This document shows positions 25,734-45,414 of a stretch of 64,000 bases of DNA, piece by piece. The notes below the pieces were generated by a model, which was given only the letters and a program-made list of their open reading frames with translations, was not told where the DNA came from and made no database searches. Origin of the DNA: Candidatus Latescibacterota bacterium. Lineage in GTDB: Bacteria > Latescibacterota > UBA2968 > UBA8231. Numbering within the stretch: the first letter of the stretch is position 1; each line of letters begins with the position of its first letter. The stretch spans positions 5,632,001-5,696,000 of the forward strand of contig OZ242214.1 in assembly GCA_965206595.1 (NCBI GenBank). The letters run 5' to 3'. A program made the position numbers and the translations under genes.

Positions 25734-26676
25734 GAACCTATCTCAAAATTGAGATTGTTTAAGTAAAATCAAAATGGATGCAAGTTGGACGAAGCCAAGA
25801 AAATTCTCCGGATACAATTCCCAGCGAGTGATCACTCGACGCTGCCATTGAAGCCAAGCAAAGAATCTCTCAACCATCCAACGCCGCACATAACGCCGCA
25901 ATCGCCGTCCGTCCTGAGTCTTTTTCTTGGTCCGATTCTGGCGATGCGGGGCGATCATCTCGATCCCGTCTTTCTTAAGCTCTTCATCCAACGAATCGCT
26001 GTCGTACGCTTTGTCACCGATCAAGTTGTCAGGTTGGTCTTCGATGAGGTAAAAGTCAAAGGTCAACTGAACCAGCGTCACTTCATGATGGTTCGCTGCA
26101 TGCGTGCTCACCGACAAGGGAAGCCCATTGCCGTCCACGATCCCCATGACCCGCACCCCCTTACCTCGCCTGGTGTGGCCGATATCGGCACCTCCACCCT
26201 TGGCCGCCGAGAACATGCCATCGATGAAAGCCTCCGATTCGTCCAGGCCCCCTTGCTCGTGAAGGGTCTGGGCCAGGTCCATGAGAACTTCGCGTACCAC
26301 CCCTTGACGACACCCGTTTTGAAAACGGCGATGCACGGTTTTGTAGTTCGGATAGCACGGCGGCAACATAGGCCATTGAGCCCCGGTGTTTAGAATCCAA
26401 AGAACGGCTTCAAAAACATCACGGGTGCAAACCGGTTTGCGACCCGGATGGCTCTTGGGACGAAGTTCTTCAGGAAAGTGATGGCGGATTCGTTGCCATT
26501 GCATGTCGGTCAGATTGACCATACACCAATGGTACATCACTGTCATTTCGAAAACAAGTTTAAGTTTGCCTATTTTGAGATAGGTTCCGAGTTCCATCGA
26601 ATTCGCGCTACCCTCTATCCTTGCCGATTATTCAGGAATTCTGCCTTTTGCAAAAGTCCAGTTTTGAGATAGGTTC
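25734..26676 (-). mobile_element. IS5-family insertion sequence with terminal IRs GAACCTATCTCAAAA, a third internal IR copy and a 2-bp TT target duplication
   Basis: IRs at 25734-25748, 26573-26587 and 26662-26676; flanks GACTTT|...|TTGTTACC; the host reading frame resumes after 26676. Confidence 0.9.
25743..26522 (-). CDS. IS5 family DDE transposase
   Basis: MVNLTDMQWQRI, AVLWILNTGAQW, YKTVHRRF, FIDG, IGDKAYDSD, RRWMVERFFAWL. Confidence 0.95.
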   Translation of the reverse strand: MVNLTDMQWQRIRHHFPEELRPKSHPGRKPVCTRDVFEAVLWILNTGAQWPMLPPCYPNYKTVHRRFQNGCRQGVVREVLMDLAQTLHEQGGLDESEAFIDGMFSAAKGGGADIGHTRRGKGVRVMGIVDGNGLPLSVSTHAANHHEVTLVQLTFDFYLIEDQPDNLIGDKAYDSDSLDEELKKDGIEMIAPHRQNRTKKKTQDGRRLRRYVRRWMVERFFAWLQWQRRVITRWELYPENFLGFVQLASILILLKQSQF

Positions 26677-26727: not shown

Positions 26728-28629
26728 CTAATGCACGACCCCGCCCAGCACGTTATTCTGCGTGCCGGTGAAGTAGTCGATGACCACCCAGATTCCCCCC
26801 ACCGCGGCCGAGCCCAGAACCAGTCCAACAAAAAACGGCTTCAAGCGGTTGAAGAGGTTCACGCCCCCGTATCTGAGTACCATGGTTTTGCATAGCCAGG
26901 CGACGAAGACGCTGAAGAACATGGACCTGAAGCCGACGCTGATCGGATAGCCGAGCGGGTGGAACGGCAACCAGGCAAAACGACGCTGCACCATCATCAG
27001 CACCGTCATAACCGAGGCGCCAATGCCCTTGTGAATCCAGCCGTTCAGATTCGGCCCCTCGGGCATATGGATATTCTTCTCCATGAAAATGTACGGCAGC
27101 CAGGCGACATATCTGAAGTAGAACGGCTCCAGATTGATGCCTCCGTACTGGTAGCCCAGATAGATGTTCAGTGCAATGGAGACGGCCGGAGTCAGAATGA
27201 TCACCGCGACAATGCCCCAGAACAGCCGCCGCCGGTTGGCCGGCCCCACCTCGGTCATCAGCTTCAGCCCGTTGGCGCAGGCGCTCATGAACAGAATCAG
27301 CGTATCCACGTTCCAGGGGTAGCTCAACGCCAGCCCGGCCAGGCCGTGCCGCCCCAGGTTGGTAGCTCCGACCGCGGAGACCACGAAGTCCGGTCCACAC
27401 GTCGGCGGATAGATGGCGGCCACACCTCCCTGCGCCACCACCCGCGTAATGGTTATGAATACTACGAAGCCTCCGAACAACAACAGGGGCACGTACAGCA
27501 AGGGAATTCCCGACTGCCACAACCACGCCCCCATCACCGTGAAACTCAGCAAGGTGCCCAGAACGGCATTACGGTAGGAGATGATCTCGTCGGAATCATC
27601 CACTTCCGGATTCCCCTGCACGGCCTTGCTCCACACCGCTTTGAGATGACTCCGACCGACGTACAGGGTACCCAGAACCAGCACGATCATGGCGCCCATG
27701 GACTGGTGGATGATCATGGGGTCGGCGTACATGCTGTATTCGCCCATTGCCGTTTCCTGCGTCTGCCACCCGAAAACATGCTGGAACCCTTGTTGCACCT
27801 GATTCAGGAACCAGAAGAAACCGAAACCGGCCGCCACGTTCTGCGGGATGAAGTAGGAAAAACCGACAATCGACGGGCTGAAGTTAAAGCCGATCCCCTC
27901 CATGCCCCGGAACATGGGAATGTGACCCAGGGACATCTCGATTGTGGGGATGAACTCGAAGTAGTTGTGAAGTCCCTTTATGCAGCCCAGCACAAATGGC
28001 ACGGAAAAGCCCATCCACATCAGGCCGCTCCGGAACAGCGGCCTGATGATCGATCCGCTCCCGTTGTCGGCGATCATGGCCAGCGGCACTTGCACCATCG
28101 GGTATGACAGGCGCTCGTAATCCACCCACTGCCGCCGCACGATCACCATGATGCAGAACATGGCCAGAAACAGCGCGAAGGCGAATACCAGCCAGTGGAA
28201 CAGGGGCAGGAGCCAGGCTTCCCAGGGCACCTGGCCAGTGGCGTTGCCCTCGTAGAAGCCCCAGACGACATCGTGTCCCTGCGGAATGGGCCAGTCCGGC
28301 AGATAGGGCTGGACCACCTCCTTCCAGTTATTCTCCGGGGTGGCGTAGTAGTAGGCCCCGGTGATAACCGGCAGCACCATGGCCGAAAAAGCACGCCCGG
28401 TCAGGGTGTTGCCCAGCAGGATCAGAAAGTAGACCACCGCCAGCTCGCCCCGCCGCAGCGCCAGACGCGGATGGAGTTGCCGAAGGACCACATTGACGAC
28501 GGCCACCAGCAGGAAGAACAGGAAGAAGGCGGCCGGCGTCAGGTTCCAGTTGGCCATTCTGGAACCTTTGATGATCATGTCGTTGTAGGTCGAGCCAAAG
28601 CCGATGAAGACGGCCCCGCACACGCCCAC
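26728..28629 (-). CDS. DUF6785/DUF6784-type polytopic membrane protein (putative transporter); true start probably further upstream
   Basis: Many TM segments; YYATPENNW, RRQWVDYERLSYP, WLPFHPLGYP, LRYGG...LKPFFVGLVLG. In-frame RGCTLRALI precedes the GTG without a canonical start codon. Confidence 0.8.
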   Translation of the reverse strand: MGVCGAVFIGFGSTYNDMIIKGSRMANWNLTPAAFFLFFLLVAVVNVVLRQLHPRLALRRGELAVVYFLILLGNTLTGRAFSAMVLPVITGAYYYATPENNWKEVVQPYLPDWPIPQGHDVVWGFYEGNATGQVPWEAWLLPLFHWLVFAFALFLAMFCIMVIVRRQWVDYERLSYPMVQVPLAMIADNGSGSIIRPLFRSGLMWMGFSVPFVLGCIKGLHNYFEFIPTIEMSLGHIPMFRGMEGIGFNFSPSIVGFSYFIPQNVAAGFGFFWFLNQVQQGFQHVFGWQTQETAMGEYSMYADPMIIHQSMGAMIVLVLGTLYVGRSHLKAVWSKAVQGNPEVDDSDEIISYRNAVLGTLLSFTVMGAWLWQSGIPLLYVPLLLFGGFVVFITITRVVAQGGVAAIYPPTCGPDFVVSAVGATNLGRHGLAGLALSYPWNVDTLILFMSACANGLKLMTEVGPANRRRLFWGIVAVIILTPAVSIALNIYLGYQYGGINLEPFYFRYVAWLPYIFMEKNIHMPEGPNLNGWIHKGIGASVMTVLMMVQRRFAWLPFHPLGYPISVGFRSMFFSVFVAWLCKTMVLRYGGVNLFNRLKPFFVGLVLGSAAVGGIWVVIDYFTGTQNNVLGGVVH

Positions 28630-31980: not shown

Positions 31981-34900
31981 CTACCCTCCATGCCCGATTC
32001 TCTCTCTTAATGCTTTAAGGTCTTCGGTGTCCTTCTCCAAGCCCCCAATTGTTTCATCGGTCAACCTGATGCGAAATTCATACCGTTTGGTAGGAACGCT
32101 CAGAGGCTGTTGGCTGGTGACGTCCCAGGAATCCGTGTCCACCGGCTGGTATCCGCTGGTACCTGCCCATTGAACTTCGCGCCCTGCCCTCCTCAATTCT
32201 TCGAGGGGTCGCCAGACCCAACGTATTTCGTATCCTTGTCCATCTTCCGGGAAAAGGATTGCCATAAAGTATTCATCGGTCGATCCTTCAAACCCAAGGG
32301 CTTTTCCGCATTGTAGACCGGACCAATGGAACGTGCCTGGACGGCGAGCTGCGTGCTTGACTTCAATGTGGATCCTGGGGGAACCGAAAATTACGAAGTC
32401 ACTCTCCCTGTTCTCGTCATCCCTGTCGTGACGCACCACAGAGCCGGGAAAGGCTCTCTTAAGCTTTTCTGCGAGCCAATCCTCCGCTGCAAGACCCGCC
32501 TCAGGTCGGGGTCTTGGCCCTGCACTCGTGGGGTTACTATCCTGCCTCGAGTCACTCCCAGACGGCTCCAACGGCTCGACTTGGCCACCAGTTTGCGGCG
32601 ATCGGAGATCCTGCTCTTCTACTCTCTCTGAAGGTGTATCGTCGCTGCTGGACGACTGTTCTTCAGAGGGCGGAGCCTCTTCCCAGGTCCTCCCGGCGTC
32701 TAGGATGTCATCTTCGGTTACTCCTTCCTGTCGCAGACGATCCAGATACTCTTCCATATCAGACTCACGCAGGAGGTTCTCAAACATGGAGGCACGATCA
32801 TCCTCTTGTGCGATCCAAACGGCCAACCCATGCCCCAAGGCCCTCCATTTGTCCTTATCAAGGTTGACGAGCAACCGATGGTCCTCAGTCAGCCATGACA
32901 GGACGTCGACATCAGTCACAGGAAAACCGTTCCTATCGAGCCGCAGCCGCAGCCCCTTTACGGCCTCGAGGTCCAATTCATCCGGCAACTGTTCCGCGAG
33001 ATTTGCAGCCAAACTCAAGCCCTTGCGTCGGTCGCGGTAGCGTTGAAAAACAACCGCTTCTCATAATGGTCTGAAGTCTCGTGGACGGGCTCCGCTTGGA
33101 GAACATCGGAGAGGGGCTTAATCCCAAGTCGCTTGGGCGCCCGTTCGCCCGCGCTCAACCTGATGATGAAAATCCTGTATCCTTCCCGGAGAATCTTGTC
33201 CCGAACCTCGTCGAAATGTGGTTGGTCTACATGAAAGACTTGGCAGGGGGGCGCGAACTCCAATTCCCCAGATCCGTCCTTCCAGACAATGCATGGGATG
33301 TCGATGTCCTCAGGTAATTCCTCTACCAGTTCAAGCTGCAGGTATCTTCGATAGAGAGCTTCACAAATCCTCTCAGGGAAATCATCCACCCGCCGGAACA
33401 ATTCGGGGAGTTTTCGCATCCAAGAGTGCCAATCCACGGGGTCGGCCGGCAGCTGATCACGTACTGCAAGAAAACGCAATGCAGGGTCAATCTGCTGATA
33501 CCACTCTTCGTTTTCGAAACCGCCTCTATCAACCTCTGGAAGAAGGCCCCTCAGGCCTCTACCCGGTAGGAATGTCTTGCGCGGAGCAACCCACCGGCCA
33601 TCATGAAACAAAGCCTCTTTGCAAGGCAACCACTCCTCATTACGAAGCTGGTGAGCCGCGAAGGATTCGTCCGCCCAGTGCCTCTCCCCTTTCTTCTCAA
33701 AGTAGCGACTCCTGTAGTACCTGGCCCTCTTCTGCTCCAAGGCCCCGACGAGGGGAAGCATCGTTCTGATGACAATGGCTGGTGTACCTTCATGCCACTG
33801 GAGGAGACAGTCAGGAAAGCATTCAATTCTCCAATCGACCAGCCATCTATAGTAACTGGGAATCTGATCCCTGTAGCTCTCTAGGAGATGGTTATCAGGC
33901 AGGCCCCTTACATGGCGAACTTTGGGTTCCCATGACACGCCAGACCAGCGCAGAAATCCCATCCATTGGTCCTGATCGGCTTCACCTCCTTTGATACTCG
34001 CCGGCCAGTCCTTGAAGGAACGTAGGACTCCTCTGTCTCTGATTCCTGCAAAATACCGGTCGAACGCCCGAGGACCCGACCATGCTTCACCGGCGTAGCA
34101 GTCAGCGGCTGGCAGCCATCCCTTGTCCGTGGGGAGGCGTAGGGTTTTGGCCGTTTGGTCCCGTAGTATCTCCCCCTTGTTCTTTCTCCCGTCTGGATCG
34201 TCGATCCATGGTGCCGTTGCCCCGAACTCGTGCCTCTGGGACCAGCGTAGAACCTGGCGCAATGCTGCCCATCCGCGGACCTCCCACTGTGGCAATTCCC
34301 AAGTGGCGATGAATGGCAACAGGGCGTATTCGAGAAATTCCCTTTGCCCCCGGAGTACTCGCGCCGCAAGCAGCTCCCGCCAGAATGGAGCGGTCTCCTT
34401 GTCAGAGGTCTCTTCCTCCCACTGGTTCAACTCCTCCCGCATCTTGGGGTGTAACGAATCAGCGGGGAGCCAATTTGGCCAGTCTGGCGGACGCTTGATC
34501 AACAAAGGATGGGAGCCGTCCAGGGCACGCACGCCTGTGTCCGTGCACCAACAGGGCACTTGCCGCAGGACCGCAGCGAACTCGCCTGCCCTTTCTAGGG
34601 ACGACACGAGGACCCGCCAGCTCTCGATACACTCACGGAGCGAGCCATTGCAGCAGAAGCGGAGCAGCCTGACGAAATCTGCTCCATCAAGGTTCCTTCC
34701 GTTGAGTTTTCGGAGCACAGGCCTGAGCTTCAGCAGATCAGGCGTGAGCAGCCTCGCTTGGCGCACCTCTTGGGGATCGTGTCGCAGTACCGCTCCCAGT
34801 CCATTGTCCCAAATCTGTACCTCCCGGGGCTTGACTCGCTCGCCGCCGATGACAGGAATGAAAGGCGTTTCAAGAAGCTGGGTTCTGATTTGGTTCTGGA

Positions 34901-36041
34901 GGATGTTCAGGGGAGTGTGGTCATGGTCGGCGACGACTTCACCAAATGCCTCTAGAGCGCATCGCGGCGGAATCTCTTTGAGAACATCTCGGAGCAGTTG
35001 GGCGAAGTCCTTGAGAATGTTCTCGTCGTTTTCTCCCTTTCGAGTGCGTTTCCGGTTGTGCTCAAGGTCGAAAGACGCATGAAGGAGAGCGCGTGCGGCG
35101 CTGTCCTCCTCAGTTGGGAAAAAGACATGAAGGGGAGTGGGACTATCACATGGAACAGGCAAGCCATGTCTTGTTGGTAGACAGATGCCGACCGTCAACT
35201 GCTTGCTGGTCTCGGTTGGAGCCGGTCGTTGGAGGATCCATCGGCGCCAAGATGTGGTCAAAGAATCCCCGCGGACCCTGGAGGAAAGCGTTACCTCACC
35301 ACTGGCGAACCCAGGGCACGATCTCCTTATCTCGTGGGATGTTTCGGAACCAGATATGTACAGACGGACGCAGACCAATTCCTGGGTGAGGAGCAGGAAC
35401 TTGTGATCAAGCGCGTTCAACCTGTCGACAGTCGTTATGCGAGCTTCGCTGTTGCGGAAGGGAAGCCGAATGACAGTTGTGTAGCCTGACCCTAGTAGTG
35501 TCTGAGTGCGCGAACTTGGCGGGCACTCATGGGGAATCCGGAAGGTCAAGGGAGGTGGGCTGGTGTTTGGGAATCCCTCCCGTAGTAGGCTTTGAGTCTT
35601 CTTTGCGGAGAACTGGAAATGAAAGGAGCCGGAGTGGATTTCCGGTGCATCGGTTATTTCCAGCACCGCCTTGAAACCCAACCCTTTTGATCCAATTAGA
35701 TCATCACTTGAACGCCCGGTGCCCATGGCGTCATCCGCGTTCTGAAGAAGCTCCCAGATGAACCGGCCATCATAATCGTGAGCGGTTTCCTCCTCGTCCC
35801 TGAAGTCAGAAGTCATTCGATTGACATCTGTCCGGTAGACTTCCAATTCCTTTTCGAGAATGGCCTCAGTGAGGTGTTCATCACTGGCGTCAAAATGGTC
35901 CGTTACATTACCAGAGAGCTTGTCGCTCAGGTGAGACGCGCAGGCGCTGATAACACCTGTTCGGGAGAAAGGGCGCCCGCCGTTAGCTACAAGCAAAGCG
36001 TCTTCAGCGACTTCAAAGAGTAGATCCTTGTTTTCTTGCAT
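31981..36041 (-). CDS. Large sacsin-like GHKL ATPase with C-terminal DUF3883 (NO VEIN-C, PD-(D/E)xK) nuclease; split by a frameshift near 33046-33050
   Basis: ORF 33015-36041: ANGGRPFS, WELLQNADDA, IGSKGLGFKAV, TTVIRLPF, LHVFFPT, LHASF. ORF 31981-33018: GLAAEDW...SDFVI...IHIEVK. Adding one base to the A5 run joins them (...KRLFFQRYRDRRKGLSLAAN...). Confidence 0.8.
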
Positions 36042-36050
36042 GCGCTTCCT

Positions 36051-38762
36051 CTACTCGATGCCAGCGGATCGCCGTTCTTTCAACCGTGCCAAGTCCTTCC
36101 GGACGTCCCCGGCGACCTCCTCGACCTCTTTGGGCACACGCGGCTTGCGGCCGAGTTCCAGTTCGAGCGCCGTAGTGAGCGGCAGAAAAAGCTTCGCGGA
36201 TGGAGATGCCTGGATAATCTCGATCATTGCCTCCGCCCCCAGATCGATGCTGAACTCCATCAATTCGTAGTGGATTTCCGGTAGCGAATCGCCGTCCGGT
36301 AGAATCTTCAGGACCTTCTGGATGTCTTTCGCACACCTCTTGGGGTTGCCGCTGCGCAGGCTCGCTTTCGCCCGGATCACGTGCGCACAGCGCAGATTTC
36401 CCTGCGATTGCGTGCCTCTGTCATCGATTACCTGGCTAGCGGCATTTGCGGCCGCCTCGTACCGCCGGCACTCCAGCTCTAGTTCGGCTTTTTCGAGGAG
36501 GGCGTCCTCTGCCCGTGCACGAAGCTCGGAAGAATCGCTGCCCCGAAATCGCTCTACGGCACCCTCAAGAGCCGCCCGGCTTTCCTCAACCCTGCCCAAG
36601 TCCCGGAGTGCCATCCCCTTATAGGTCAAGGCTGCAGCCTGCGCTTCGAGAAGGTCCGGTGTCTGGCTCTCGCCGAATCGCCTGAGCACCTCCTCATAGG
36701 CAGCCAATTCTTCCTCTGGTCGGTCCAACTCGCCAAGTGCGGCCCCCTTGTTGACAAGAGCCTTGGCTACCATCTCGAGAGTGTCCGCTGTTTCGCTCTC
36801 CTCGAATCGGCGTACTACCTCTTCGTAGACGGCCAGCGATTCCTTGGTTCGGCCCAGTTCCCCTAGTGCGACCCCCTTCCTGAAGAGGGCCCTGGCGAGC
36901 AACCCAAGATGGAACTCCGTTTCGCTCTCTCCGAGTCGGCGTTCCACATCGCCATAGGCGGCCAGTGCCTCCTCCGGTCGGTTCAGGGCCGCGAGGGCAA
37001 CGCCCTTACAGAAGAGGGCTGCGACGACCGATTCAAGAATCTCTGGTGACGGACACTCGCCGAATCGATTCACGACCTCTTGGCAGGCGACCTGCGCCTG
37101 CTCCGTCCGGTCGAGCTGGGCGAGTGTGATTCCCTTATTGAGAAGGGCGCTGGCGACCATCTCGACATGAACCTCGGTATCGTCCTCACCGAACCCCCAT
37201 CCCGCCTCCTCATAAACGGCCAGTGCCTCCTCATAGCCCGCAAGTGCTTCCTCCGGCCTGCCCAGCTCTCCGAGAGCCTCCGCTTTGCAGAAGAGGGCCA
37301 TGGCGACCAGTTGGAAGACCTCGGGTGACCGAATCTCCCCGAACCGCCGCACCACCTCGTCCCAGGTGGCCAGCGACCCCTCCGGGTCTTGCTCCTGCAA
37401 CTCGACCGCTCTCAGCAAGAGCGCCCTCGCATCCACCAGCTCTTCGGGTTCCTCCTCGGGAAGGAGCGCAAGCAGCTCTTCTCGATGCCCGGCCAGCGCT
37501 GGCAGCTGCACCAGCTGTTCAAGCGCCGTCCGGTGCAACGATCGCATCTCCCCGTCCAAGGTTCGCTCCTCCCGGGCCATGCTTGCTCCAATGTTCCTCA
37601 ACTCGGAGCGAGAGTAGAAGGCTTCCATGAACTGGATGAGGGCCTGGATCAGGGAGTCCGGTCCGCCGTTGCGGCGCAGCAGGTAGTAAATGTTGTACAG
37701 CCGTTCGGTCAGGTAGTACTGCTTGCGCCGGAGGCTGCCGCCTATAACCTGGACGACTCCCCGTTCGGTGAGGCGCGCGAGTTGGGCGCTGCACTTGCTC
37801 GTCTCGATCCGGCAGCGCTCCGCGATCTCCCGCGTGGTCGCCGGCTTCCACAAGTCGGCCAGCGCCAGGTAGACCCGCCGCTCCTGGGCTGGGAGGGCCT
37901 CTATGTGGCTTTTGAAGTACTCCGTATGCTCGTCCACGAGGTCGAGGAGATCGTCCATCAGCTCGCCGAAGGAGAGCCCCGGGCCGAAGCCTGCCACGAT
38001 GGCCACGAGGCGGGGGCTGCCGCCGGTGAGAATCTCCAGTGGCCGGATCGTCTGGCGCGGGGGGCGCTGGCCGGAGACCGTTTCCCACAGCACGGCGCAC
38101 TCCCCGGTATCGAGCGGCTGCAGCGTGCGTACCCGCAACAGGTCGTAGAGGGCGTGTTCCGGGTGGTCGATCTCGGCGAAACGGCTGGTGGCGCTGGCGA
38201 GCAGGATGATGCGCGGCTCGGTCTGTAGGATCTTGCGCAGCCGCCAGCCGGCGTCACGGTCCGCCATGTCACGGAACATCATGTTCAGGTTCTCGACCAT
38301 CAGCACGAGCCGCTTGTCCTCGCGGTCGGAGAAGTCGAGGAGCGCGCCGAGGCAGCGTTCGCCGAGGGTCTGGTCGTCCTTAATGGCGCGCAGGTCCCGG
38401 CAGGTGAGGCGCAGGTCCGGAGCGTCGTCCCGGGGCGGCGCCTGGTCCGCCAGCCGGGAGAGGGCTTCGAGCCAGAACTCCCCGGCGCGGGCGACCTCGT
38501 AGCTCTCCTCGGCGAAGACAACGGGAAAGAAGCGGGGCGACAGCTCCGGGTCTTGGCGGACCTCTGCCGCCACGCGCAGGAGCAGGATGGTCTTGCCGCT
38601 GCCACGCGGACCGATCACGATCTGGTGCGGGTTCGAGGTACCGGTGCATCCGCGCAGCATCTCGACGATGGAGTCGAACTCCACCTTGCGCACGCAGAAC
38701 GAGGCAGTCAGCTCCTCGTCGGTGAGAAACCCCGGGTTGAATTTCCGGGCGGTCACGGTCAT
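36051..38762 (-). CDS. P-loop ATPase (STAND-like) with winged helix and TPR-like repeats
   Basis: MTVTARKFNPGFLTDEEL; Walker A GPRGSGKT; variant Walker B LVLMVENL; TGGSPR; wHTH (TTREIAE...CSAQLARLTERGVV); about seven 43-aa helical repeats; ATGA overlap with the upstream gene. Confidence 0.85.
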   Translation of the reverse strand: MTVTARKFNPGFLTDEELTASFCVRKVEFDSIVEMLRGCTGTSNPHQIVIGPRGSGKTILLLRVAAEVRQDPELSPRFFPVVFAEESYEVARAGEFWLEALSRLADQAPPRDDAPDLRLTCRDLRAIKDDQTLGERCLGALLDFSDREDKRLVLMVENLNMMFRDMADRDAGWRLRKILQTEPRIILLASATSRFAEIDHPEHALYDLLRVRTLQPLDTGECAVLWETVSGQRPPRQTIRPLEILTGGSPRLVAIVAGFGPGLSFGELMDDLLDLVDEHTEYFKSHIEALPAQERRVYLALADLWKPATTREIAERCRIETSKCSAQLARLTERGVVQVIGGSLRRKQYYLTERLYNIYYLLRRNGGPDSLIQALIQFMEAFYSRSELRNIGASMAREERTLDGEMRSLHRTALEQLVQLPALAGHREELLALLPEEEPEELVDARALLLRAVELQEQDPEGSLATWDEVVRRFGEIRSPEVFQLVAMALFCKAEALGELGRPEEALAGYEEALAVYEEAGWGFGEDDTEVHVEMVASALLNKGITLAQLDRTEQAQVACQEVVNRFGECPSPEILESVVAALFCKGVALAALNRPEEALAAYGDVERRLGESETEFHLGLLARALFRKGVALGELGRTKESLAVYEEVVRRFEESETADTLEMVAKALVNKGAALGELDRPEEELAAYEEVLRRFGESQTPDLLEAQAAALTYKGMALRDLGRVEESRAALEGAVERFRGSDSSELRARAEDALLEKAELELECRRYEAAANAASQVIDDRGTQSQGNLRCAHVIRAKASLRSGNPKRCAKDIQKVLKILPDGDSLPEIHYELMEFSIDLGAEAMIEIIQASPSAKLFLPLTTALELELGRKPRVPKEVEEVAGDVRKDLARLKERRSAGIE

Positions 38763-40009
38763 CGCCGTTCGATTGGGGTGAAGTATCCGCCGTGCCGGGC
38801 GCGCCACCAGTCTTCGAGGAGCCCGGAAACAAACCGGTAGCCGTCTCCGTGTCGCTCCAGATACCCATCGTGTTCGAGCAGGAGAAGCACCTCCTGGACC
38901 GCCACCGGATCACCGCCGGCTTCCTCCCGCTCCTCGAACTCGCGATATCGGGCGATGGCATCGGCCCGCAACCCACCTTCACTCACCGAGGCCTCGGTCA
39001 GGATCTCAAGCGCGGTCCGGTAGCCCTCCCTCCCGAGCACCATCTTCAGCCGCCCCTCATAATGCTCCATATCCATCTGTCCGCGGACCCCGAGCATCTC
39101 GGAGGTGTACACGCGCTCCACATCTTCCATCGTGGCTTTGCGCCGGCCGGCGCGGCGCAGGTGCTCGTGGAGGTGGTCGAAAAACTGCTGGACGTGGTGG
39201 GGGATCTGGCATCGCAGCCTCCGGCACATCTCCAGGCGAACGCCAAGCGGAAGGTCGAGGCCGTAGGACTGCGCCAGAGCCGCAAGGCAGCCCGCCGCCG
39301 TCTCGTCGTCCCAGGCCTTCAGATCGAAGGGAGAGTATATATTCGCGTGGGCGCTGAGCCCGGCCTGTACCAGGATCGGCTCCAGACTTACGCTGCCGGC
39401 GAGAATCAGGCAGACGCGGCCTCGATGGGCCTGGGCGTTCTTGCGGAGCCAGCCCATGAACTCATCCGCCGCCCGCCGCCGCTCCGAGGTTATGTGGTGG
39501 TCACCTCCCTTGAGCAGCCGGTTGACGAGAATCGGGAGCTCGTCGATGGCGAGCACCACCGGCCTGTCGCTTTCGGACAGGGCCGCGAAGACCTCGTCCC
39601 CTTTCTGTCGCCAGTTCCCGGCGTCGATCCCGGCCCGGAGCTTGACCAGAACCTCGTCGACGGACACCGAATCGACTCGATCCCGAACCTCTCTCAGGGT
39701 GCTGGCGAATCCGGACTTGATCCGCTGCCAAGCGCCGTGTACCGGCCGCGACCGGGCCCCGATCTCGGCGATGGCGTCCGCCGGGGAGGCAGCGTCCTCC
39801 AGGTCGACGAAGACCGGTTGGAAGCGCCCCTGTGTGTCCAAGCGGCGCAGCAGCTCCCGGACCAGGCTCGTCTTGCCCATCCGCCGCTGCGCGGTCAGCA
39901 AGGTATGGGCGCCGTCCCTGACCCGCTCGGCGAGGGCTTCGAGATCCGCATCCCGGTTGAAGAACCGATCCCCTTCGACCCAGTTGGCTCCGGCTTTCTT
40001 GAGTACCAT
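38759..40009 (-). CDS. P-loop ATPase (AAA/STAND-like) with C-terminal winged helix
   Basis: WVEGDRFFNR, Walker A AQRRMGKTS, FVDLE, Walker B VVLAIDELP, AGSVSL, LEHDGYL...YRFVSGLLEDWW. Confidence 0.85.
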   Translation of the reverse strand: MVLKKAGANWVEGDRFFNRDADLEALAERVRDGAHTLLTAQRRMGKTSLVRELLRRLDTQGRFQPVFVDLEDAASPADAIAEIGARSRPVHGAWQRIKSGFASTLREVRDRVDSVSVDEVLVKLRAGIDAGNWRQKGDEVFAALSESDRPVVLAIDELPILVNRLLKGGDHHITSERRRAADEFMGWLRKNAQAHRGRVCLILAGSVSLEPILVQAGLSAHANIYSPFDLKAWDDETAAGCLAALAQSYGLDLPLGVRLEMCRRLRCQIPHHVQQFFDHLHEHLRRAGRRKATMEDVERVYTSEMLGVRGQMDMEHYEGRLKMVLGREGYRTALEILTEASVSEGGLRADAIARYREFEEREEAGGDPVAVQEVLLLLEHDGYLERHGDGYRFVSGLLEDWWRARHGGYFTPIERR

Positions 40010-40019
40010 TGGTGCGCCT

Positions 40020-40074
40020 TTTCGCAACGAATTCGCTGGCAACAATCATGTTGGCAACGAATGTGTTGGCAAAC
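40020..40074. repeat. Four 15-bp-period repeats with palindromic core GTTG-G-CAAC (operator-like)
   Basis: GCAA at 40024, 40039, 40054 and 40069; units TTTCGCAACGAATTC / GCTGGCAACAATCAT / GTTGGCAACGAATGT / GTTGGCAAAC. Confidence 0.7.
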
Positions 40075-40086
40075 TGGAGGTGTGTC

Positions 40087-40296
40087 AAGAAGGACCTCCG
40101 GTTCAACCTCGATTACGGTCAGCCCGAGTTCCCTGCAGCGCGCGAGACTCAGGTCGTCCACTTCGTCGACAACCTCTCGGACGACGTGAACCGGCGCCAG
40201 GTGCTGAACGACAAGGGCGAGAATCGATAGATCCGAATCCCGGTAGTCGATCAGTACGTTCGCGTCCGACAGAAGGACCGCCGGGCGATCAGGCAT
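40087..40296 (-). pseudogene. Truncated PIN-domain protein (N-terminal ~70 aa)
   Basis: VLLSDANVLIDY and VVREVVDEV (first two PIN acidic positions); homology ends at about residue 70 and the ORF runs on into unrelated repeat DNA. Confidence 0.7.
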
Positions 40297-40297
40297 C

Positions 40298-41422
40298 TCA
40301 TGTGGCCCATTCGGCGGCCAACTGACGCATATCCATCAAGGACATGCGGAGGATCTCGGCGCCCCGGCTGAGCGAGATCTCTTCGCTCTCGACCGCGCGG
40401 CGGACCAGACGGCGAAGCCGATCGTCCAGACAGTCGGTGTCGGAGAGACGATCCGGTTCCTGGCCCCGTTTTTCGTTGAACTCGTACCCGGTCAACGGCT
40501 GAGGTTCGTCGACCTTTTTCAACGTCGAGCCGAACCGCCTTCGGTGCTGCCCCTGGAAAATCCCGAAGACCTCCTTCGAGACCTCTTCCATTTCCACCAA
40601 ACGGAGCAGCACGGTCTTGTAGCTCACGTGGAAGATCCGCTTGACCTTGAGGACGCGCTCGTAAAGCGGGTGTCCTCTCGATTCCTGCCACTCCCGCTCG
40701 AAGGAGCCGCGCGGCATCAGGAAATAGCTTGCGAACTCATCGGCTTGTTTTTCCTCATCTTCGGCTTCTTCCTCCTGCGTGTGGTCGTAAGCGCCGGGGT
40801 GCAGCAGCAGGTGCCCGAGCTCGTGCGCCGCCGAAAAAATCCAGCGCTCAACCGAAATCCGATCCCAGGTATTGATGACGATCGCCGGTCCGCCGTCGTC
40901 TTCCTTGACGGAAAGGCCGAAGAACGCATCGGTCGCGCGGGGGAAGCGGAGCACCTTGATGCCGCATCTTTCCAGGATCCCGCAGATGTCGTGAATGGGC
41001 TGATCATGGAGCTTGAGGTTTTTACGCGCCTTCTCGGCGACAGCGCGTGGATCGTGCCGGCGAGGGCGGAGACCTCGCAGTTGAAAGGACGGAGAATCAT
41101 CAAACAGGTCCTCGAGGAAGCTGTAGTCGTCGAGCCAGTTGGAAACCTCCACAAGCAACTGCTCCCGCTCCCGGACACGCTTTCGAGCCCGGAAACGCAC
41201 GGTGTGCAGCCGCCGCACCGGGGTCGCGAGTTCGACGGTCGAGACCTCCAATGCGTGCGCCAACGCCCGCATGGTACCGGCGCGAGGCAGCGTCTGGCCC
41301 CGCTCGATCTTGGCCAGACCAAGACGCGACAGCTGCGCCCGATCGGCAAGGGCTTTCTGGGTCATCCCCATTGAGGCACGTAGCCGCACCACGTTGGTGC
41401 CGATTACGTTCTTGGCAGACAT
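40298..41422 (-). CDS. XRE-family HTH fused to ImmA/IrrE (COG2856) metallo-endopeptidase
   Basis: LRASMGMTQKALA...LAKIERG...LAHALEV HTH; FSAAHELGH zinc motif; EKQADEFASYFLMP. Confidence 0.93.
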   Translation of the reverse strand: MSAKNVIGTNVVRLRASMGMTQKALADRAQLSRLGLAKIERGQTLPRAGTMRALAHALEVSTVELATPVRRLHTVRFRARKRVREREQLLVEVSNWLDDYSFLEDLFDDSPSFQLRGLRPRRHDPRAVAEKARKNLKLHDQPIHDICGILERCGIKVLRFPRATDAFFGLSVKEDDGGPAIVINTWDRISVERWIFSAAHELGHLLLHPGAYDHTQEEEAEDEEKQADEFASYFLMPRGSFEREWQESRGHPLYERVLKVKRIFHVSYKTVLLRLVEMEEVSKEVFGIFQGQHRRRFGSTLKKVDEPQPLTGYEFNEKRGQEPDRLSDTDCLDDRLRRLVRRAVESEEISLSRGAEILRMSLMDMRQLAAEWAT

Positions 41423-41471
41423 CGAGGCTTCTCCCTTAATGTGTTTTCACCTGATCGGGGAGGTTGTTCGA

Positions 41472-41500
41472 AAATTACCTTATTAACAGGTTATCGTCAA
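41472..41500 (-). promoter_or_regulatory. Sigma70-type promoter for the XRE-ImmA gene with an imperfect palindrome in the spacer
   Basis: Minus strand TTGACG-N17-TAATTT; plus strand TTACCT-TATTAAC-AGGTTA dyad. Confidence 0.55.
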
Positions 41501-41529
41501 TAAGCATACTTTCATGTGCGGCCTCGGGG

Positions 41530-41700
41530 AGGGGCCAGCCCTACCCCTCCAGATAGTTCCGGATCTAGGCGGGATCGGTCAGGGCCGCCACGATCCTCAG
41601 GAGACCCCCACACGGCGGGCAGCCGCTGAAGTCGGCGGCACACACCCGGGCGAGCAGCGCCGCCCACCCCAGGCGATGGCGGCAGGGCGGAGCGCTCGAA
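41530..41700 (-). pseudogene. IS91-family transposase C-terminal remnant
   Basis: Manual translation RHRLGWAALLARVCAADFSGCPPCGGLLRIVAALTDPA*IRNYLEG*G, with two in-frame stops. Confidence 0.75.
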
Positions 41701-41779
41701 TCGCGGTCCGTCGGGAGAGCATCAGTGGGTCAGGGGAAACAACCGCCGTTGCCCATACCATAGAAACGGAGCACGACTG

Positions 41780-41977
41780 ATGACCGTATCGGAAGTTCAG
41801 CAGCCGATCATTAGCCTTTCCAAATATCCGACTACGCTTAACTGAGGCGGTGGCTCAATGAATACGACTGGAAGAGTGGGATCGACAGATCGAAGCGGAT
41901 CGGACGAAGGAAAGTTGGACTTTCTGTTGGCTCAGGCCACAGAAGCCAAACCACATTGCCCCTTGGAAGACCTGTAG
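41780..41977 (+). pseudogene. Degenerate small antitoxin-like gene
   Basis: Stitching frames gives MTVSEVQQ.IISLS...LRRWLNEYDW..WDRQIEAD.DEGKLDFLLAQATEAK...LEDL-stop, like small WDRQIExD antitoxins; no toxin follows. Confidence 0.5.
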
Positions 41978-42258
41978 TGGGTCAGCTCTGGCTTCGGTCC
42001 ACAACCGCCTTCGCCTTTGCCATGCGGCCGCGTTCTCGGGCCCGACCCAGCGCCACCGCAGACTTTGCTACCACTCGGAAGCCATCAGGAGCGGGTCAAA
42101 TTGTTCTACCCGACGCAGTGGCGGACGAGATTCTTGACGCATTTGTCACACAGGCAGTACTCCCCTCGTCCAAGAAATCGTGGGGCGTTATGTGGGATCG
42201 AGTGGTTGCTCTGGATGCTAACACGTTGAGTCGGCAAATGGAATTCCTTACGTACGCG

Positions 42259-45200
42259 CTAAAACGTCCGGCGAGAGGATTCGTCAAGCAATCGGTCCCG
42301 CGTTTTCCTGATTTCTTTAATCACCGAGTCAATCTCCTCGTGGCATCGCCACGCCGGTATCCGCAGGACTGTCCAACCGAGGTTGGACAGGACGCGGTCT
42401 CGTGTAATGTCTTGGCGCCGTTGTCGGCCTCTAGCGTCAAGGTGCTGATCGCCGTCAACTTCGATGTTCAGCTTGATCCCCTGTTCCAGTAGGGCGAAGT
42501 CCAGCTCGTACCCCTCCACCTCGGGTTTGGCGTAGGGCAACAGGTCCCGGAGTTGCATGGCGTTAAGCAGGAGTTTCTCAGACGTGCTGTCCGTGCGGAA
42601 CTCGGCGGACGGCGAACCCGTGCCCTCATTCCGGGCGACCTCATCGCGCAGATAGACCCGCAGGGAGGCCAAGGTTGGACTCCCCAAATCTCCCATGAGC
42701 GGGTGACCGAGAACGATTAGCACTCGACGGGCGCGGCTGACAGCCACGTTAAGGAGGTTTCTCTCTTTTTCTATCCAGCGGGCGCCGCTCTTGGACATGC
42801 CGGGCGAGAGCACGGAAGAAAGAACGATCCCATCACGCTCGTCTCCCTGCAGGCGGTGCGCGGTTCCGCTTACAAAATCGATGTCGTCCAGGAGATCCTG
42901 GCCGAATTGCGTTTTGGCTATCTGACCGATGAGCCGCGCCTGCGCGGTGAATGGAGTTACCACGCCGACGGTCTTGTAACCGGATTCGATTACGCCACGA
43001 AGTTGTTTCACAGTTTCCTCTGCCTCTGCCTGGTTTAGCCAGCTTCCAGTGGCGGGCCGTACTGCCGCGCCGTCGACATCGCACCAGTAGATGGCACGAT
43101 CACGCTGGGATGTATCAGAGACATCCGTCAATACGGTGAGTTCACCCTTGTAGAACGTCTTGTTGAACCAACTGGCGATGTGTGGGTGGCAGCGGTAGTG
43201 CTCGTTGAGAAGAACTGGTGATTGGGGTCTTGCGGTAAACTCGAACGCCGAGTAAGCCGAACCATCCTTGTGGTGGATGCCCCGGTGGCGTAGATCGTCG
43301 TTGTCGAACCCCGTCTGGGTGGCGATCTCCTGTAAGCGTCCATCGCTGAGGGAAACGATCGGATTCAGTTGGTATGGATCCCCCACGACCGCCAAACGTT
43401 TTGCACGGTAGGCCAACGGCAGCAGGGCCGCGAGGCTGCACTGGCTGGCCTCGTCGACGATCACGAGGTCAAACAGTCCTGATTCCAAGGGGAAGTTGGA
43501 ATGCGCTGTTAATGCCGTGCACGCCCAGCCTCGTAAGTGGTGAAGCGAATTGCCAATTGCTCTTTTAAAGCGGTCGCCGTTGGCGGGGATTGTGCCGAAA
43601 GCTGCTAGACGGTCAGCACCGGAGGAGACTCGTGTTGCCGTGTCCACGCGAATTGCGTAGAGGCTTGCATCTGCCCATTTCTGGTCTGCTTCGCGCACAC
43701 TGGTCGACGGGTCGCCCACCGCGGATTTCAGTTGTTGACGTTCAACTCGTCCAATTTCCAACTGGGAGGTCAGCTTTGCTATGCGCCGATCAATCCGAGC
43801 CCAGGAGACGAGTTGCTCCAATGGAGCGGTTTCATGGCAACCGAGTCGGCGGCGGAAGCGAAGCGCGCGGAAGCGACGGAACAACCACGTCCTCAACAAC
43901 CGTTTGGTTCGTCGCTCTATTTCGTGGGAACTGATGGGCAGTTCAGGAGAACTCGCGTTAGTCCAGAGTATTCGCGCCGCCTCTTTCAAGGCTGGCGCGA
44001 GTTTCTTTTGCTCCTCTACAAGCTGCAACAGTTTTACATCCAGTTCGTCCAGCCGCGCCAATTTCTCCATTAGCTGGGTGCGCTCAGTGGCGACTCGCTT
44101 CAACTGGGCGCGCGCTGCGGCTTGGTTGCCGCGGTGCGCTGCCGCCTGAGTCGACGCCGCGGTAATGCGATCCGGAACCTGCTCGCGCACGTCGCGATTG
44201 CCGGTGCGGACTAACAAGCCGCTACTCACGTCCTTTTCCGCACGGTCGACGGCCACGTCAACCGCACCATTGTTGGTCGAGGTCACCAAGACTTTGTCGC
44301 CGTCCAGCCACGCGTTCGTGACCGCGTTGACTACGAGTTGCGTCTTGCCGGTCCCGGGTGGACCGGTCACGACCGTCAGAGGTTCTCTGCGGAGACGCTC
44401 GAGTGCTTCCTCCTGTGATTGGTTGCATACAAGTGGAGCCGCAAGAGGCCCGGACGGGGGTCGCTTGTTTTCCTTCTGCGCGAAACCGTTGAGGAGAAGA
44501 TGTGCCGCAGCCGTAGTCGACCAGTCTTCTCGGGTCTGCAGTTGTCGCAGTTCCTCGCGAAGGGTGCTGGTGTATCCAGACCACTCTGCCACAACCGAAA
44601 TCGCGGCGTTGTAGACGCCCTTTTTGCGACCGATGTTCGATTCGAGGATTCGAGCGTTGAGAGGCGACAAGATCTGGAGTCCGAGCAGGTCGGCCGTTCG
44701 TTCGGCGAGGGCACCAAAAGCGTCGGTATCTCCGAATGGCAAGCCGTGACTTAACAGCTCGCTGATGTCTTCGGCGATCGAAGGGTCGAAGATACCGCTT
44801 GCCGTGATGGCCAAGTTGAACTCTGGCTCCATAGTAGCGTGAAGTATCCACTGGTAGTTGGGGCCTCGTTCCGGTTCGATCTGGACAGCGAAAAGAGGAG
44901 CAACCTTGGGTGTGTGATCGCGGTCGGTTACGACGATAGTCGGCCAGCCGTAGATGATCGACCGTGTGCGAGACCTCAGTTTATCGGGGAGCTCTCCGGG
45001 CGCCGGCGTCGAGTCGCTTTGCCCGACCACAAGTTTCTCTTCCCCAAGGTGTAGAAACCACTGAGAATTCTCTTTTACGTACGGGACCAGTGATTTCGCT
45101 GCTTCCGCTTCAATGCACCGTTGCGCATAATCGCATAGTTGCTGCCAGGAAGTTTGCGTGCTGTTGGCAACCGGCTGTGACGCGCTCGGACTGCGCGGTG

Positions 45201-45414
45201 CTTTCGTTGCCCTATCCCGCGAACCGCCCTCTGTGTTATCCGTTGAGACTTGGACCGAGGGACCCGCACCACCTGTGCAGTCTATACACCAGACCCCTTT
45301 TGACGATGGTGACCAGTGGGCGCGCTCACCCGCTTTCAGGCTCGTCGCGCACGATCGGCAGCGTCCATCGTACTTCAGTGAGATGAAACGTAGATCTTTG
45401 GGTAGTTCCATCAC
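42259..45414 (-). CDS. Superfamily 1 (Upf1/DNA2-like) helicase with N-terminal Zn ribbon and C-terminal DUF559/Vsr-like endonuclease
   Basis: CRSC..WCIDC; GPPGTGKT; IVDEASQ; GDPYQL; HYRC; GVVTPF; LQGDERD; LNVAVSRAR; YELDFAL..IEVDGDQH..RD..L..LGWTVLRI. Confidence 0.9.
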   Translation of the reverse strand: MMELPKDLRFISLKYDGRCRSCATSLKAGERAHWSPSSKGVWCIDCTGGAGPSVQVSTDNTEGGSRDRATKAPRSPSASQPVANSTQTSWQQLCDYAQRCIEAEAAKSLVPYVKENSQWFLHLGEEKLVVGQSDSTPAPGELPDKLRSRTRSIIYGWPTIVVTDRDHTPKVAPLFAVQIEPERGPNYQWILHATMEPEFNLAITASGIFDPSIAEDISELLSHGLPFGDTDAFGALAERTADLLGLQILSPLNARILESNIGRKKGVYNAAISVVAEWSGYTSTLREELRQLQTREDWSTTAAAHLLLNGFAQKENKRPPSGPLAAPLVCNQSQEEALERLRREPLTVVTGPPGTGKTQLVVNAVTNAWLDGDKVLVTSTNNGAVDVAVDRAEKDVSSGLLVRTGNRDVREQVPDRITAASTQAAAHRGNQAAARAQLKRVATERTQLMEKLARLDELDVKLLQLVEEQKKLAPALKEAARILWTNASSPELPISSHEIERRTKRLLRTWLFRRFRALRFRRRLGCHETAPLEQLVSWARIDRRIAKLTSQLEIGRVERQQLKSAVGDPSTSVREADQKWADASLYAIRVDTATRVSSGADRLAAFGTIPANGDRFKRAIGNSLHHLRGWACTALTAHSNFPLESGLFDLVIVDEASQCSLAALLPLAYRAKRLAVVGDPYQLNPIVSLSDGRLQEIATQTGFDNDDLRHRGIHHKDGSAYSAFEFTARPQSPVLLNEHYRCHPHIASWFNKTFYKGELTVLTDVSDTSQRDRAIYWCDVDGAAVRPATGSWLNQAEAEETVKQLRGVIESGYKTVGVVTPFTAQARLIGQIAKTQFGQDLLDDIDFVSGTAHRLQGDERDGIVLSSVLSPGMSKSGARWIEKERNLLNVAVSRARRVLIVLGHPLMGDLGSPTLASLRVYLRDEVARNEGTGSPSAEFRTDSTSEKLLLNAMQLRDLLPYAKPEVEGYELDFALLEQGIKLNIEVDGDQHLDARGRQRRQDITRDRVLSNLGWTVLRIPAWRCHEEIDSVIKEIRKTRDRLLDESSRRTF

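Follow-up and report, generated by a model that had tools for sequence, protein, structure and literature searches.

In GyrB, Hsp90, MutL, MORC and Topo VI-B the motifs of the nucleotide site follow one another in the order N-box, G1, G2 and the chain opens with a free N-terminal strap; the GHKL N-box provides the catalytic Glu and the Mg-binding Asn, and the textbook G1 carries an adenine-contacting Asp. This N-box/G1/G2 order is treated as constant across GHKL proteins as different as gyrase, Hsp90, MutL, histidine kinases, MORC and sacsin. The nearest analogy to the situation described here comes from another fold, that of the circularly permuted GTPases (YlqF/YjeQ type), in which the P-loop fold keeps its active site with its motifs in a changed order. 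Among defence systems, Tiamat is described in two preprints as a GHL ATPase followed by a repeat-rich middle region and a PD-(D/E)xK nuclease, and ATP hydrolysis and DNA cleavage are reported there for the Bacillus cereus protein (bioRxiv 10.64898/2026.09.30.754977, 10.64898/2026.09.30.755639). Here we analyse a gene found in a 64,000-nucleotide stretch of DNA (the window) from Candidatus Latescibacterota bacterium (assembly GCA_965206595.1, contig OZ242214.1, positions 5,632,001 to 5,696,000). We propose, with a probability of roughly 0.88, that it is a Tiamat (TmtA)-type defence gene from a clade whose Bergerat fold has its first two blocks in exchanged order, this particular copy being probably inactive or split.

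For convenience, block A designates the two helices that precede the N-box plus the N-box helix, block B the hairpin, G1, the next helix and the S.K motif, and block C everything from G2 onward. Block B stands at the N-terminus of the protein rather than after the N-box and, as read along the chain, two adjacent blocks are cleanly exchanged (B-A-C instead of the canonical A-B-C) while the rest is untouched, whereas the YlqF/YjeQ GTPases underwent a circular permutation of the whole domain. The features of the gene are listed below with their window positions; amino acid (aa) numbers refer to the protein, ORF stands for open reading frame, and "invariant" refers here and below to 117 sequences that are 39-94% identical to the window protein.

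33015..36041, minus strand: permuted Tiamat-like gene, main ORF of 1008 aa with ATPase, transducer and helical middle region, ending prematurely at a frameshift
35919..36026, minus strand: block B (aa 6-41), beta-hairpin, G1-type loop V-A-N20-G-G22, helix and S.K (K41)
35883..35918, minus strand: new B-to-A linker (aa 42-53), acidic, of lower confidence
35721..35882, minus strand: block A (aa 54-107), two pre-N-box helices and the N-box helix
35727..35753, minus strand: N-box ELLQNADDA (aa 97-105), E97, Q100, N101 and D104 invariant
34971..35708, minus strand: block C (aa 112-357), remaining Bergerat fold and a beta-rich, transducer-like domain with invariant R330
35670..35696, minus strand: G2 box IGSKGLGFK (aa 116-124), I116, G117, K119, G120, G122 and F123 invariant
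33046..33053, minus strand: frameshift site, TTG then a T5 run, after which homology goes on in the -1 frame
31981..33057, minus strand: C-terminal piece, a 345-aa ORF (P0122) with a D...E.K nuclease-like end, homology starting at 33057

Along the chain the motifs thus come as G1 (aa 20-22), N-box (aa 97-105) and G2 (aa 116-124), which is not the GHKL order. A first-pass annotation of the window, made from the sequence alone, had placed the strand, the G1-like box and S.K between L7 and K41, ELLQNADDA at aa 97-105 and IGSKGLGFK at aa 116-124, all of which are exact, and had proposed a segment-swapped Bergerat fold in one uninterrupted frame. The out-of-order profile matches, the conservation across the family, the AlphaFold model and the behaviour of structure alignments presented below all agree with that proposal. 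The annotation had also pointed out that a canonical G1 aligning between aa 105 and 116 would speak against it: because the gap between N-box and G2 amounts to 10 residues (aa 106-115), there is no room for one. It had missed the Tiamat (TmtA) kinship of the protein and the frameshift, which lies about 3 kb downstream. The start of the ORF is fixed: 9 nt, in which an AGGA-type ribosome site is found, lie between the stop of the upstream gene and the ATG.

Scanned as separate pieces, the protein matches existing profiles out of order and, judging from the E-values, far beyond chance. On NCBIfam NF047352 (80 positions), aa 5-41 fall on positions 17-53 (E 6e-4), aa 93-106 on positions 2-15 (E 3e-4) and aa 111-136 on positions 55-80 (E 6e-5). 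On PDLC03964, a PADLOC profile of TmtA, aa 6-41 fall on positions 69-104 (E 1e-7), aa 62-107 on 17-62 (E 7e-15) and aa 112-357 on 107-354 (E 2e-30). Partial hits of this kind were what the annotation had anticipated from a hidden Markov model (HMM) search. We consider it highly improbable that the N-terminal segment resembles a G1 by chance or convergence, the real G1 having been deleted to leave a degenerate, G1-less pseudo-ATPase. Such a scenario could draw on the modest E-value of the short piece on NF047352 and on a Pfam scan of aa 1-60 alone, which returned no family. However, the TmtA profile places aa 6-41 exactly at the positions missing between the other pieces, the alignment of block B to canonical relatives holds residue by residue, neither G22 nor K41 varies across the 117 sequences, and AlphaFold2 packs aa 6-34 confidently, structure aligners putting the segment on the post-N-box hairpin of GyrB, Hsp90 and sacsin.

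The exchanged order is shared by a large family. A word-indexed search retrieved 297 relatives at E <= 1e-3, the best 120 of which were used, and an exhaustive HMMER search of cluster representatives retrieved 1281 at E <= 1e-3, among them 417 with E <= 1e-10 and 151 with E <= 1e-30; the best 150 were taken further. Small profiles of blocks A, B and C were built from an alignment (A1) of window aa 1-360 with 116 homologues, P0018, P0023 and P0121 (handles with P designate proteins, those with L loci) being omitted as sequences without the N-terminus. Homologues with the same order, which the annotation had suggested looking for, proved abundant: 214 of the 252 proteins scanned read B-A-C, one (P0243) reads A-B-C and 37 are fragments or weak matches, two of which still indicate the permuted order (P0236, which starts inside block B, and P0176, in which a weak block B comes first). 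At the level of genomes, 80 loci were obtained from a scan with one genome per species; 45 are B-A-C, and in 29 all three blocks are detected at E <= 1e-3 in the order A-B-C. In five more loci A and C are present and B is weak or missed, yet a G1 is visible between A and C, and the last one was unusable.

On the alignment evidence, the blocks are homologous to those of the canonical relatives and are not look-alikes. (i), a block-B profile made from permuted sequences only also picks up the block B of canonical relatives, at its place between A and C and with E-values down to 7e-11. (ii), aligned side by side, the two forms have the strand, the V-A-N/D-x-G loop, the next helix and S.K in common. 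(iii), block A, pre-N-box helices included, is likewise alignable between permuted and canonical forms and, (iv) the canonical P0243 and L044 carry block B at the exact spot where the window protein has only ~10 residues. The junctions are identical in all permuted members. In two loci from metagenome-assembled genomes (MAGs) of Hyphomicrobiales, L045 (97-912 and 6968-7834) and L056, we observed two stand-alone proteins each, ~270-290 aa long and made of the permuted ATPase domain only, whose N-box reads ELLLNANDA and lies 4 residues from G2; in L045 the pair flanks the gene of a 1629-aa RTX-repeat protein, near HlyD-type and BTLCP genes. The permuted domain is thus also found outside the Tiamat architecture.

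Contigs of four runs compared with 32800-36200 show neither insertions nor deletions and differ from it at one base, and those of runs X4, X5 and X6 cover the start-codon junction and parts of the feature at 35650-36041 without differences. The exchange might still be an artefact of a local misassembly, a chimeric contig or a wrong start, inasmuch as 35650-36041 is covered end to end only in X1, the run from which the window probably derives, where short contigs form a chain across it, and no single independent contig spans the whole 392-bp feature. We find this hardly credible: the same order recurs in the 214 proteins and 45 loci of unrelated assemblies, the X4, X5 and X6 contigs agree with the window and the upstream stop codon leaves the start where it is. 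Misassembly, the other outcome that the annotation had named as fatal to its proposal, is thus contradicted by the contigs of independent runs. One X5 contig, of depth 9.4, joins 33773 to 35046 and so leaves out 1272 bases of the gene, the shorter side of the joint measuring 23 letters; this joint may be a deletion variant or a chimeric contig.

The nucleotide site appears complete despite its changed order. In addition to the N-box residues listed above, which include those expected of a GHKL protein, both glycine boxes are present, G1 as V-A-N20-x-G22 and G2, which is invariant, as I116-G-x-K-G-x-G-F123. The invariant columns of A1 match those of A2, an alignment of 33 canonical sequences, one to one. 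The corresponding residues (A1 = A2) are, in block B, G22 = G79 and K41 = K98; in block A, R93 = R47, E97 = E51, Q100 = Q54, N101 = N55 and D104 = D58; and in block C, I116 = I103, G117 = G104, K119 = K106, G120 = G107, G122 = G109, F123 = F110 and R330 = R328. Because the invariant columns correspond in the two forms, selection seems to have kept the whole nucleotide site after the swap, and from these conserved residues we infer that ATP binding and hydrolysis are retained. A domain that kept the fold and lost or changed catalysis, acting as a nucleotide sensor or as a structural dimerisation module, is a rather unlikely alternative. It would be in line with the chain break in the ATP lid, both halves of which are modelled with low confidence, with the replacement of the G1 Asp by Asn and with the decay of many copies (see below). 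On the other hand, the invariance of N-box, G1, S.K, G2 and the transducer Arg argues for selection on the whole active site, and the G1 Asn is also found in most canonical near relatives.

The fold itself is predicted to be kept despite the swap. AlphaFold2 modelled aa 1-360 from A1 with a predicted local distance difference test (pLDDT) of 88.5 and a predicted template modelling score (pTM) of 0.89; the control, the canonical L044 (375 aa, from A2), reached a pLDDT of 89.2 and a pTM of 0.88. The two models contain the same elements with the first two groups exchanged:

Permuted model: strands 6-11 and 15-20 and helix 27-34; then helices 54-71, 74-89 and 94-105; then helix 122-128, strands 134-137 and 140-144, and onward
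Canonical L044 model: helices 7-25, 27-43 and 48-58; then strands 63-68 and 72-77 and helix 84-91; then helix 109-115, strands 121-124 and 127-130, and onward

Low confidence is restricted to aa 38-43 (pLDDT < 50) and aa 111-118 in the permuted model, in which pLDDT is ~66 for aa 31-50, and to a single loop, 95-107, between S.K and G2 in the canonical one. Because the two low-confidence loops of the former are the halves of the 95-107 loop of the latter, the chain appears to be cut inside the ATP lid. The comparison of AlphaFold topology proposed in the annotation thus returned a domain that is predicted to fold, with the canonical elements in swapped order.

Foldseek matched the permuted model to the N and M domains of the Hsp90 family (Hsp90, GRP94 and TRAP1, E ~1e-4) and to sacsin SR1. 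The aligner VIA gave Z-scores of 9-9.5 to GyrB, sacsin, MORC, Hsp90 and Topo VI-B, against 13-16 for the canonical control, so that AlphaFold2, Foldseek and VIA concur on the alpha/beta sandwich and transducer-like domain of GHKL proteins. The permuted Z-scores are lowered because VIA is order-dependent and places one swapped block at a time, as the aligned ranges illustrate (rmsd, root-mean-square deviation):

Sacsin 5v44_C, permuted: Z 9.5, rmsd 3.0, 144 aligned, model 3-239 on chain 125-336
Sacsin 5v44_C, canonical: Z 16.1, rmsd 2.8, 179 aligned, model 25-229 on chain 90-336
E. coli GyrB 1ei1_A, permuted: Z 8.9, rmsd 4.7, 222 aligned, model 2-360 on chain 54-363
E. coli GyrB 1ei1_A, canonical: Z 13.5, rmsd 4.2, 265 aligned, model 24-372 on chain 7-375
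Yeast Hsp90 2cg9_B, permuted: Z 9.0, rmsd 4.7, 218 aligned, model 1-360 on chain 59-407
Yeast Hsp90 2cg9_B, canonical: Z 13.8, rmsd 5.0, 275 aligned, model 25-375 on chain 5-431

The sacsin alignment of the permuted model begins (chain 125) just after the N-box, and the starts at GyrB 54 and Hsp90 59 lie just past the N-box helices of those proteins; the permuted N-terminal hairpin is thus placed on the canonical hairpin. In other rows (6xld_B, 6xlc_A, 7z37 and 7kcl) the model is aligned from 70/71 onward to target residues 5/6 onward, the N-box helix being placed and the hairpin skipped. This alternating choice of the aligner is what a non-sequential swap should produce. Sacsin SR1 (PDB 5V44-5V47) is the closest solved fold, as also seen from the score of the canonical L044, and shares with plant NO VEIN and the window protein the sequence signatures of N-box and G2. 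It differs in that the permuted model can be aligned to it only from residue 125, because the N-box helix comes later in the permuted chain.

GHL ATPases, which dimerise on ATP binding, have a Bergerat fold and a transducer-like domain with a conserved basic residue (R330 here) and, as in these proteins, a symmetric dimer is predicted. Three runs with two copies of aa 1-360 plus ATP and Mg gave values of 0.73, 0.74 and 0.73 for ipSAE (interaction prediction score from aligned errors), against 0.00 for the best control; in the calibration of the ipSAE mark, 20 of 30 proteins solved as same-chain pairs reached it, as did 1 of 23 solved as single chains. Contacts agree between runs at >= 97% and the pLDDT of the partner is >= 86. 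The interface is formed by the pre-N-box helices (64-91), the G2 lid (119-120) and a transducer loop (325-335), together with the helix after G1 and the new linker (31, 35-38 and 45-49, the linker residues being 45-47 and 49). The model supports dimerisation but falls short of showing it. Since the linker and the post-G1 helix touch the pre-N-box helices of the partner in this interface, one may ask whether, through a three-dimensional domain swap, each ATP site is completed by block B of the other subunit and is functional only in the dimer. We regard this as very unlikely, as the monomer model packs block B in cis with a pLDDT of 88-97 and the 12-15-residue linker is long enough for that.

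Taken together, these results most probably describe a gene of the following layout: a GHKL ATPase resembling those of sacsin and Hsp90 at the N-terminus, then a domain of transducer type, an extended helical middle and, at the C-terminus, a nuclease-like end. The hairpin/G1/S.K block has been relocated from between the N-box helix and G2 to the extreme N-terminus, with the cut falling inside the ATP lid between S.K and G2, and the former N-terminal strap is now held at both ends by the new 12-15-residue linker. The strap of the window protein is internal and its lid discontinuous, unlike those of other GHL ATPases. The domain may nevertheless bind and hydrolyse ATP and dimerise as they do; the protein would then work in the manner of Tiamat, clamping in an ATP-driven way and thereby licensing a nuclease to attack phage DNA.

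Kinship with Tiamat is indicated by PADLOC, whose best profile is PDLC03964 (TmtA, E 4e-70), eight further TmtA profiles matching at E <= 7e-4; the matches extend over the ATPase and the middle region. Like TmtA, the family combines a length of ~1400 aa in intact relatives (1337-1480 aa among the best 120 of 297) with a sacsin-type GHKL ATPase, a transducer, a helical middle and a putative NOV_C/DUF3883-type end; the window protein differs from TmtA by its swapped blocks A and B and by its frameshift. PF13020 (NOV_C/DUF3883) is precomputed for 18 of these 120 best homologues, and Pfam scans of P0013, P0005 and P0078 for it stayed below the cut-off (E 7e-4 to 0.013). Instead of one gene of ~1400-1500 codons, the window contains 1008 + 345 codons split by the -1 frameshift: in tblastn, the full-length relatives P0005, P0013 and P0009 follow one frame to ~aa 1000 and then the -1 frame from 33057. 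Because the same letters, with no gap, are read across the site in contigs from three runs, each of a different study, the frameshift is real in the DNA and no slip of the assembly. The C-terminal piece aligns to the C-termini of homologues, is 50-57% identical to those encoded at L001 and L002 and retains the SDF...IEVK pattern. The window copy is probably inactive or split, with its nuclease end detached; it may be a dead gene, a gene in two parts, or one whose full product is obtained through ribosomal slippage on G_TTT_TTC. Only this one locus was found when a second copy was looked for in the genome.

Several points weigh against our interpretation. The evidence consists of sequences and models. 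Scored as a whole, the protein reaches 49.5 on NF047352, in three out-of-order stretches, for a curated cut-off of 50, and 27.7 on Pfam SACS (PF25794) for a cut-off of 32.8; the SACS match covers aa 111-205 and its score rises to 36.4 for the piece aa 81-210, without block B. The G1 Asn takes the place of the textbook Asp. In the models, the spatial equivalence of blocks A and B rests on aligned ranges, on the order of secondary structures and on Z differences, and the dimer may have passed through the model's memory of solved GHL dimers, in a calibration made without ligands. The nuclease-like piece P0122 has no Pfam match of its own at E <= 0.1. Finally, the window copy is broken and, among nine related permuted loci that were checked, seven are disrupted at differing places (L002, L007, L008, L010, L014, L029 and L037).

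An eighth of these nine loci is cut by a contig end. L002 contains two insertions of ~1.6 and 1.1 kb, L010 a deletion of ~480 codons, and the other five are frameshifted; these disruptions may reflect genuine degeneration of a gene that is costly to keep, or errors in the assembly of long reads. Six metagenome relatives (P0003, P0004, P0027, P0033, P0077 and P0154) all end near window aa 742-749. A common break site was suspected at this position; the window DNA has no homopolymer there, and genome loci break at various other places.

Permuted loci occur in ~13 phylum-level groups (according to record titles, with binning errors possible in MAGs). These are Latescibacterota, Binatota, Gemmatimonadota, Pseudomonadota, Planctomycetota, Nitrospirota, Nitrospinota, Myxococcota, Thermodesulfobacteriota, Verrucomicrobiota and Aquificota, as well as two archaeal MAGs (Methanoperedens and Woesearchaeota); Bradyrhizobium, Sphingomonas and Rubellimicrobium are among the cultured carriers. 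As with Tiamat, occurrence is patchy among genomes close to the window's: matches at E <= 1e-10 are found in 7 of 41 related genomes (itself included), a genome of the same family having an intact permuted copy of 1419 aa and one of the same genus a canonical copy.

The canonical order is likely ancestral by parsimony, because all other known GHKL families are A-B-C. A first tree was computed from the unswapped part (273 columns, 74 rows; six short rows and the unusable locus were left out), and all 41 permuted rows fell on one side of a branch with a Shimodaira-Hasegawa-like approximate likelihood ratio test (SH-aLRT) support of 90. A more careful tree of 77 rows, to which two short Hyphomicrobiales proteins and the canonical P0243 were added, requires two changes, P0243 nesting in the permuted group with weak support (76/47). 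A repeated origin of the permuted order, or a single reversion, would accommodate this tree and the fact that one change suffices in only 18% of 200 bootstrap trees, and we consider it unlikely without dismissing it. P0243 has a long branch (1.55) and an odd composition to go with its weak placement, and the 41 permuted rows gather on one side when it and the two short rows are left out. Moreover, the approximately unbiased (AU) test does not reject a single permuted clade (log-likelihood difference 0.52, p 0.46) and the junctions are the same in all permuted members. A single origin is thus the simplest reading, unproven as it is. As for the event itself, the tandem duplication followed by reciprocal loss that the annotation had suggested is a hypothesis. 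No protein with two copies of block A or B was found at E < 1e-2 among the 252 scanned.

A search of the literature, with subscription journals and the supplements of the Tiamat preprints lying beyond it, returned no description of a permuted Bergerat fold. The string "permut" is absent from the accessible text of the two preprints, supplements excluded (bioRxiv 10.64898/2026.09.30.754977, 10.64898/2026.09.30.755639), and papers that pair circular permutation with GHKL concern, in their accessible parts, HEPN domains and methylases and not GHKL. What emerges is a real and conserved variant in chain order, to all appearances functional, of a fold and a defence family that are both known; the copy in this genome is probably inactivated. 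The Bergerat fold would then tolerate a cut in the ATP lid and the loss of a free N-terminal strap, and the swap would explain why standard domain models score these proteins too low, which are named "hypothetical" in databases. It would also add a distinct subfamily to Tiamat, a defence system with eukaryotic relatives (NO VEIN and sacsin) whose mechanism is only now being worked out, and provide structural biologists with a natural variant in which to probe what a continuous lid and an exchanged strap contribute to the ATPase cycle. It is tempting to go further, although we do so tentatively and with the odds rather against us, and to speculate that this is the first recognised natural permutation of the Bergerat fold, that it arose once in the Tiamat lineage and spread horizontally to >12 bacterial and archaeal phyla, and that it made the coupling of ATP binding, lid closure and dimerisation different from that of every other GHKL ATPase. 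An altered coupling might be expected from the chain break within the ATP lid and from the new linker that tethers the strap and sits in the dimer interface; if so, the clade would constitute a natural experiment on this coupling.

The gene lies in a stretch of lower G+C content (55-62% vs 66-71%), an island that also carries other defence-like genes (36051-45414, minus strand). Its surroundings are as follows:

36051..38807, minus strand: upstream neighbour, STAND/AAA_16 NTPase with winged helix and TPR repeats
38759-40045, minus strand: AAA_16/AAA_22 ATPase
40298-41422, minus strand: HTH_3 + Peptidase_M78 gene
42259-45414, minus strand: SF1 helicase fused to a DUF559/MTES_1575 endonuclease domain
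45780-49778: purL, boundary of the island on the upstream side
25743-26597, minus strand: IS4/5-family DDE transposase, other edge of the island

When eight neighbouring ORFs were compared with the 80 loci by tblastn, the STAND-TPR, AAA_16, HTH-M78, SF1 helicase/DUF559, PhyH and GH-like genes were not found beside the gene, and the sole neighbour match was a TPR-only one, in L070. The idea of an operon partner was therefore dropped, and the lack of a recurring neighbour in the 80 related loci fits a stand-alone, single-gene system. At the low-GC edge, the IS4/5 transposase is itself flanked by paralogous DUF6785 + DUF6784 genes (23633-25735, plus strand, and 26728-28629, minus strand).

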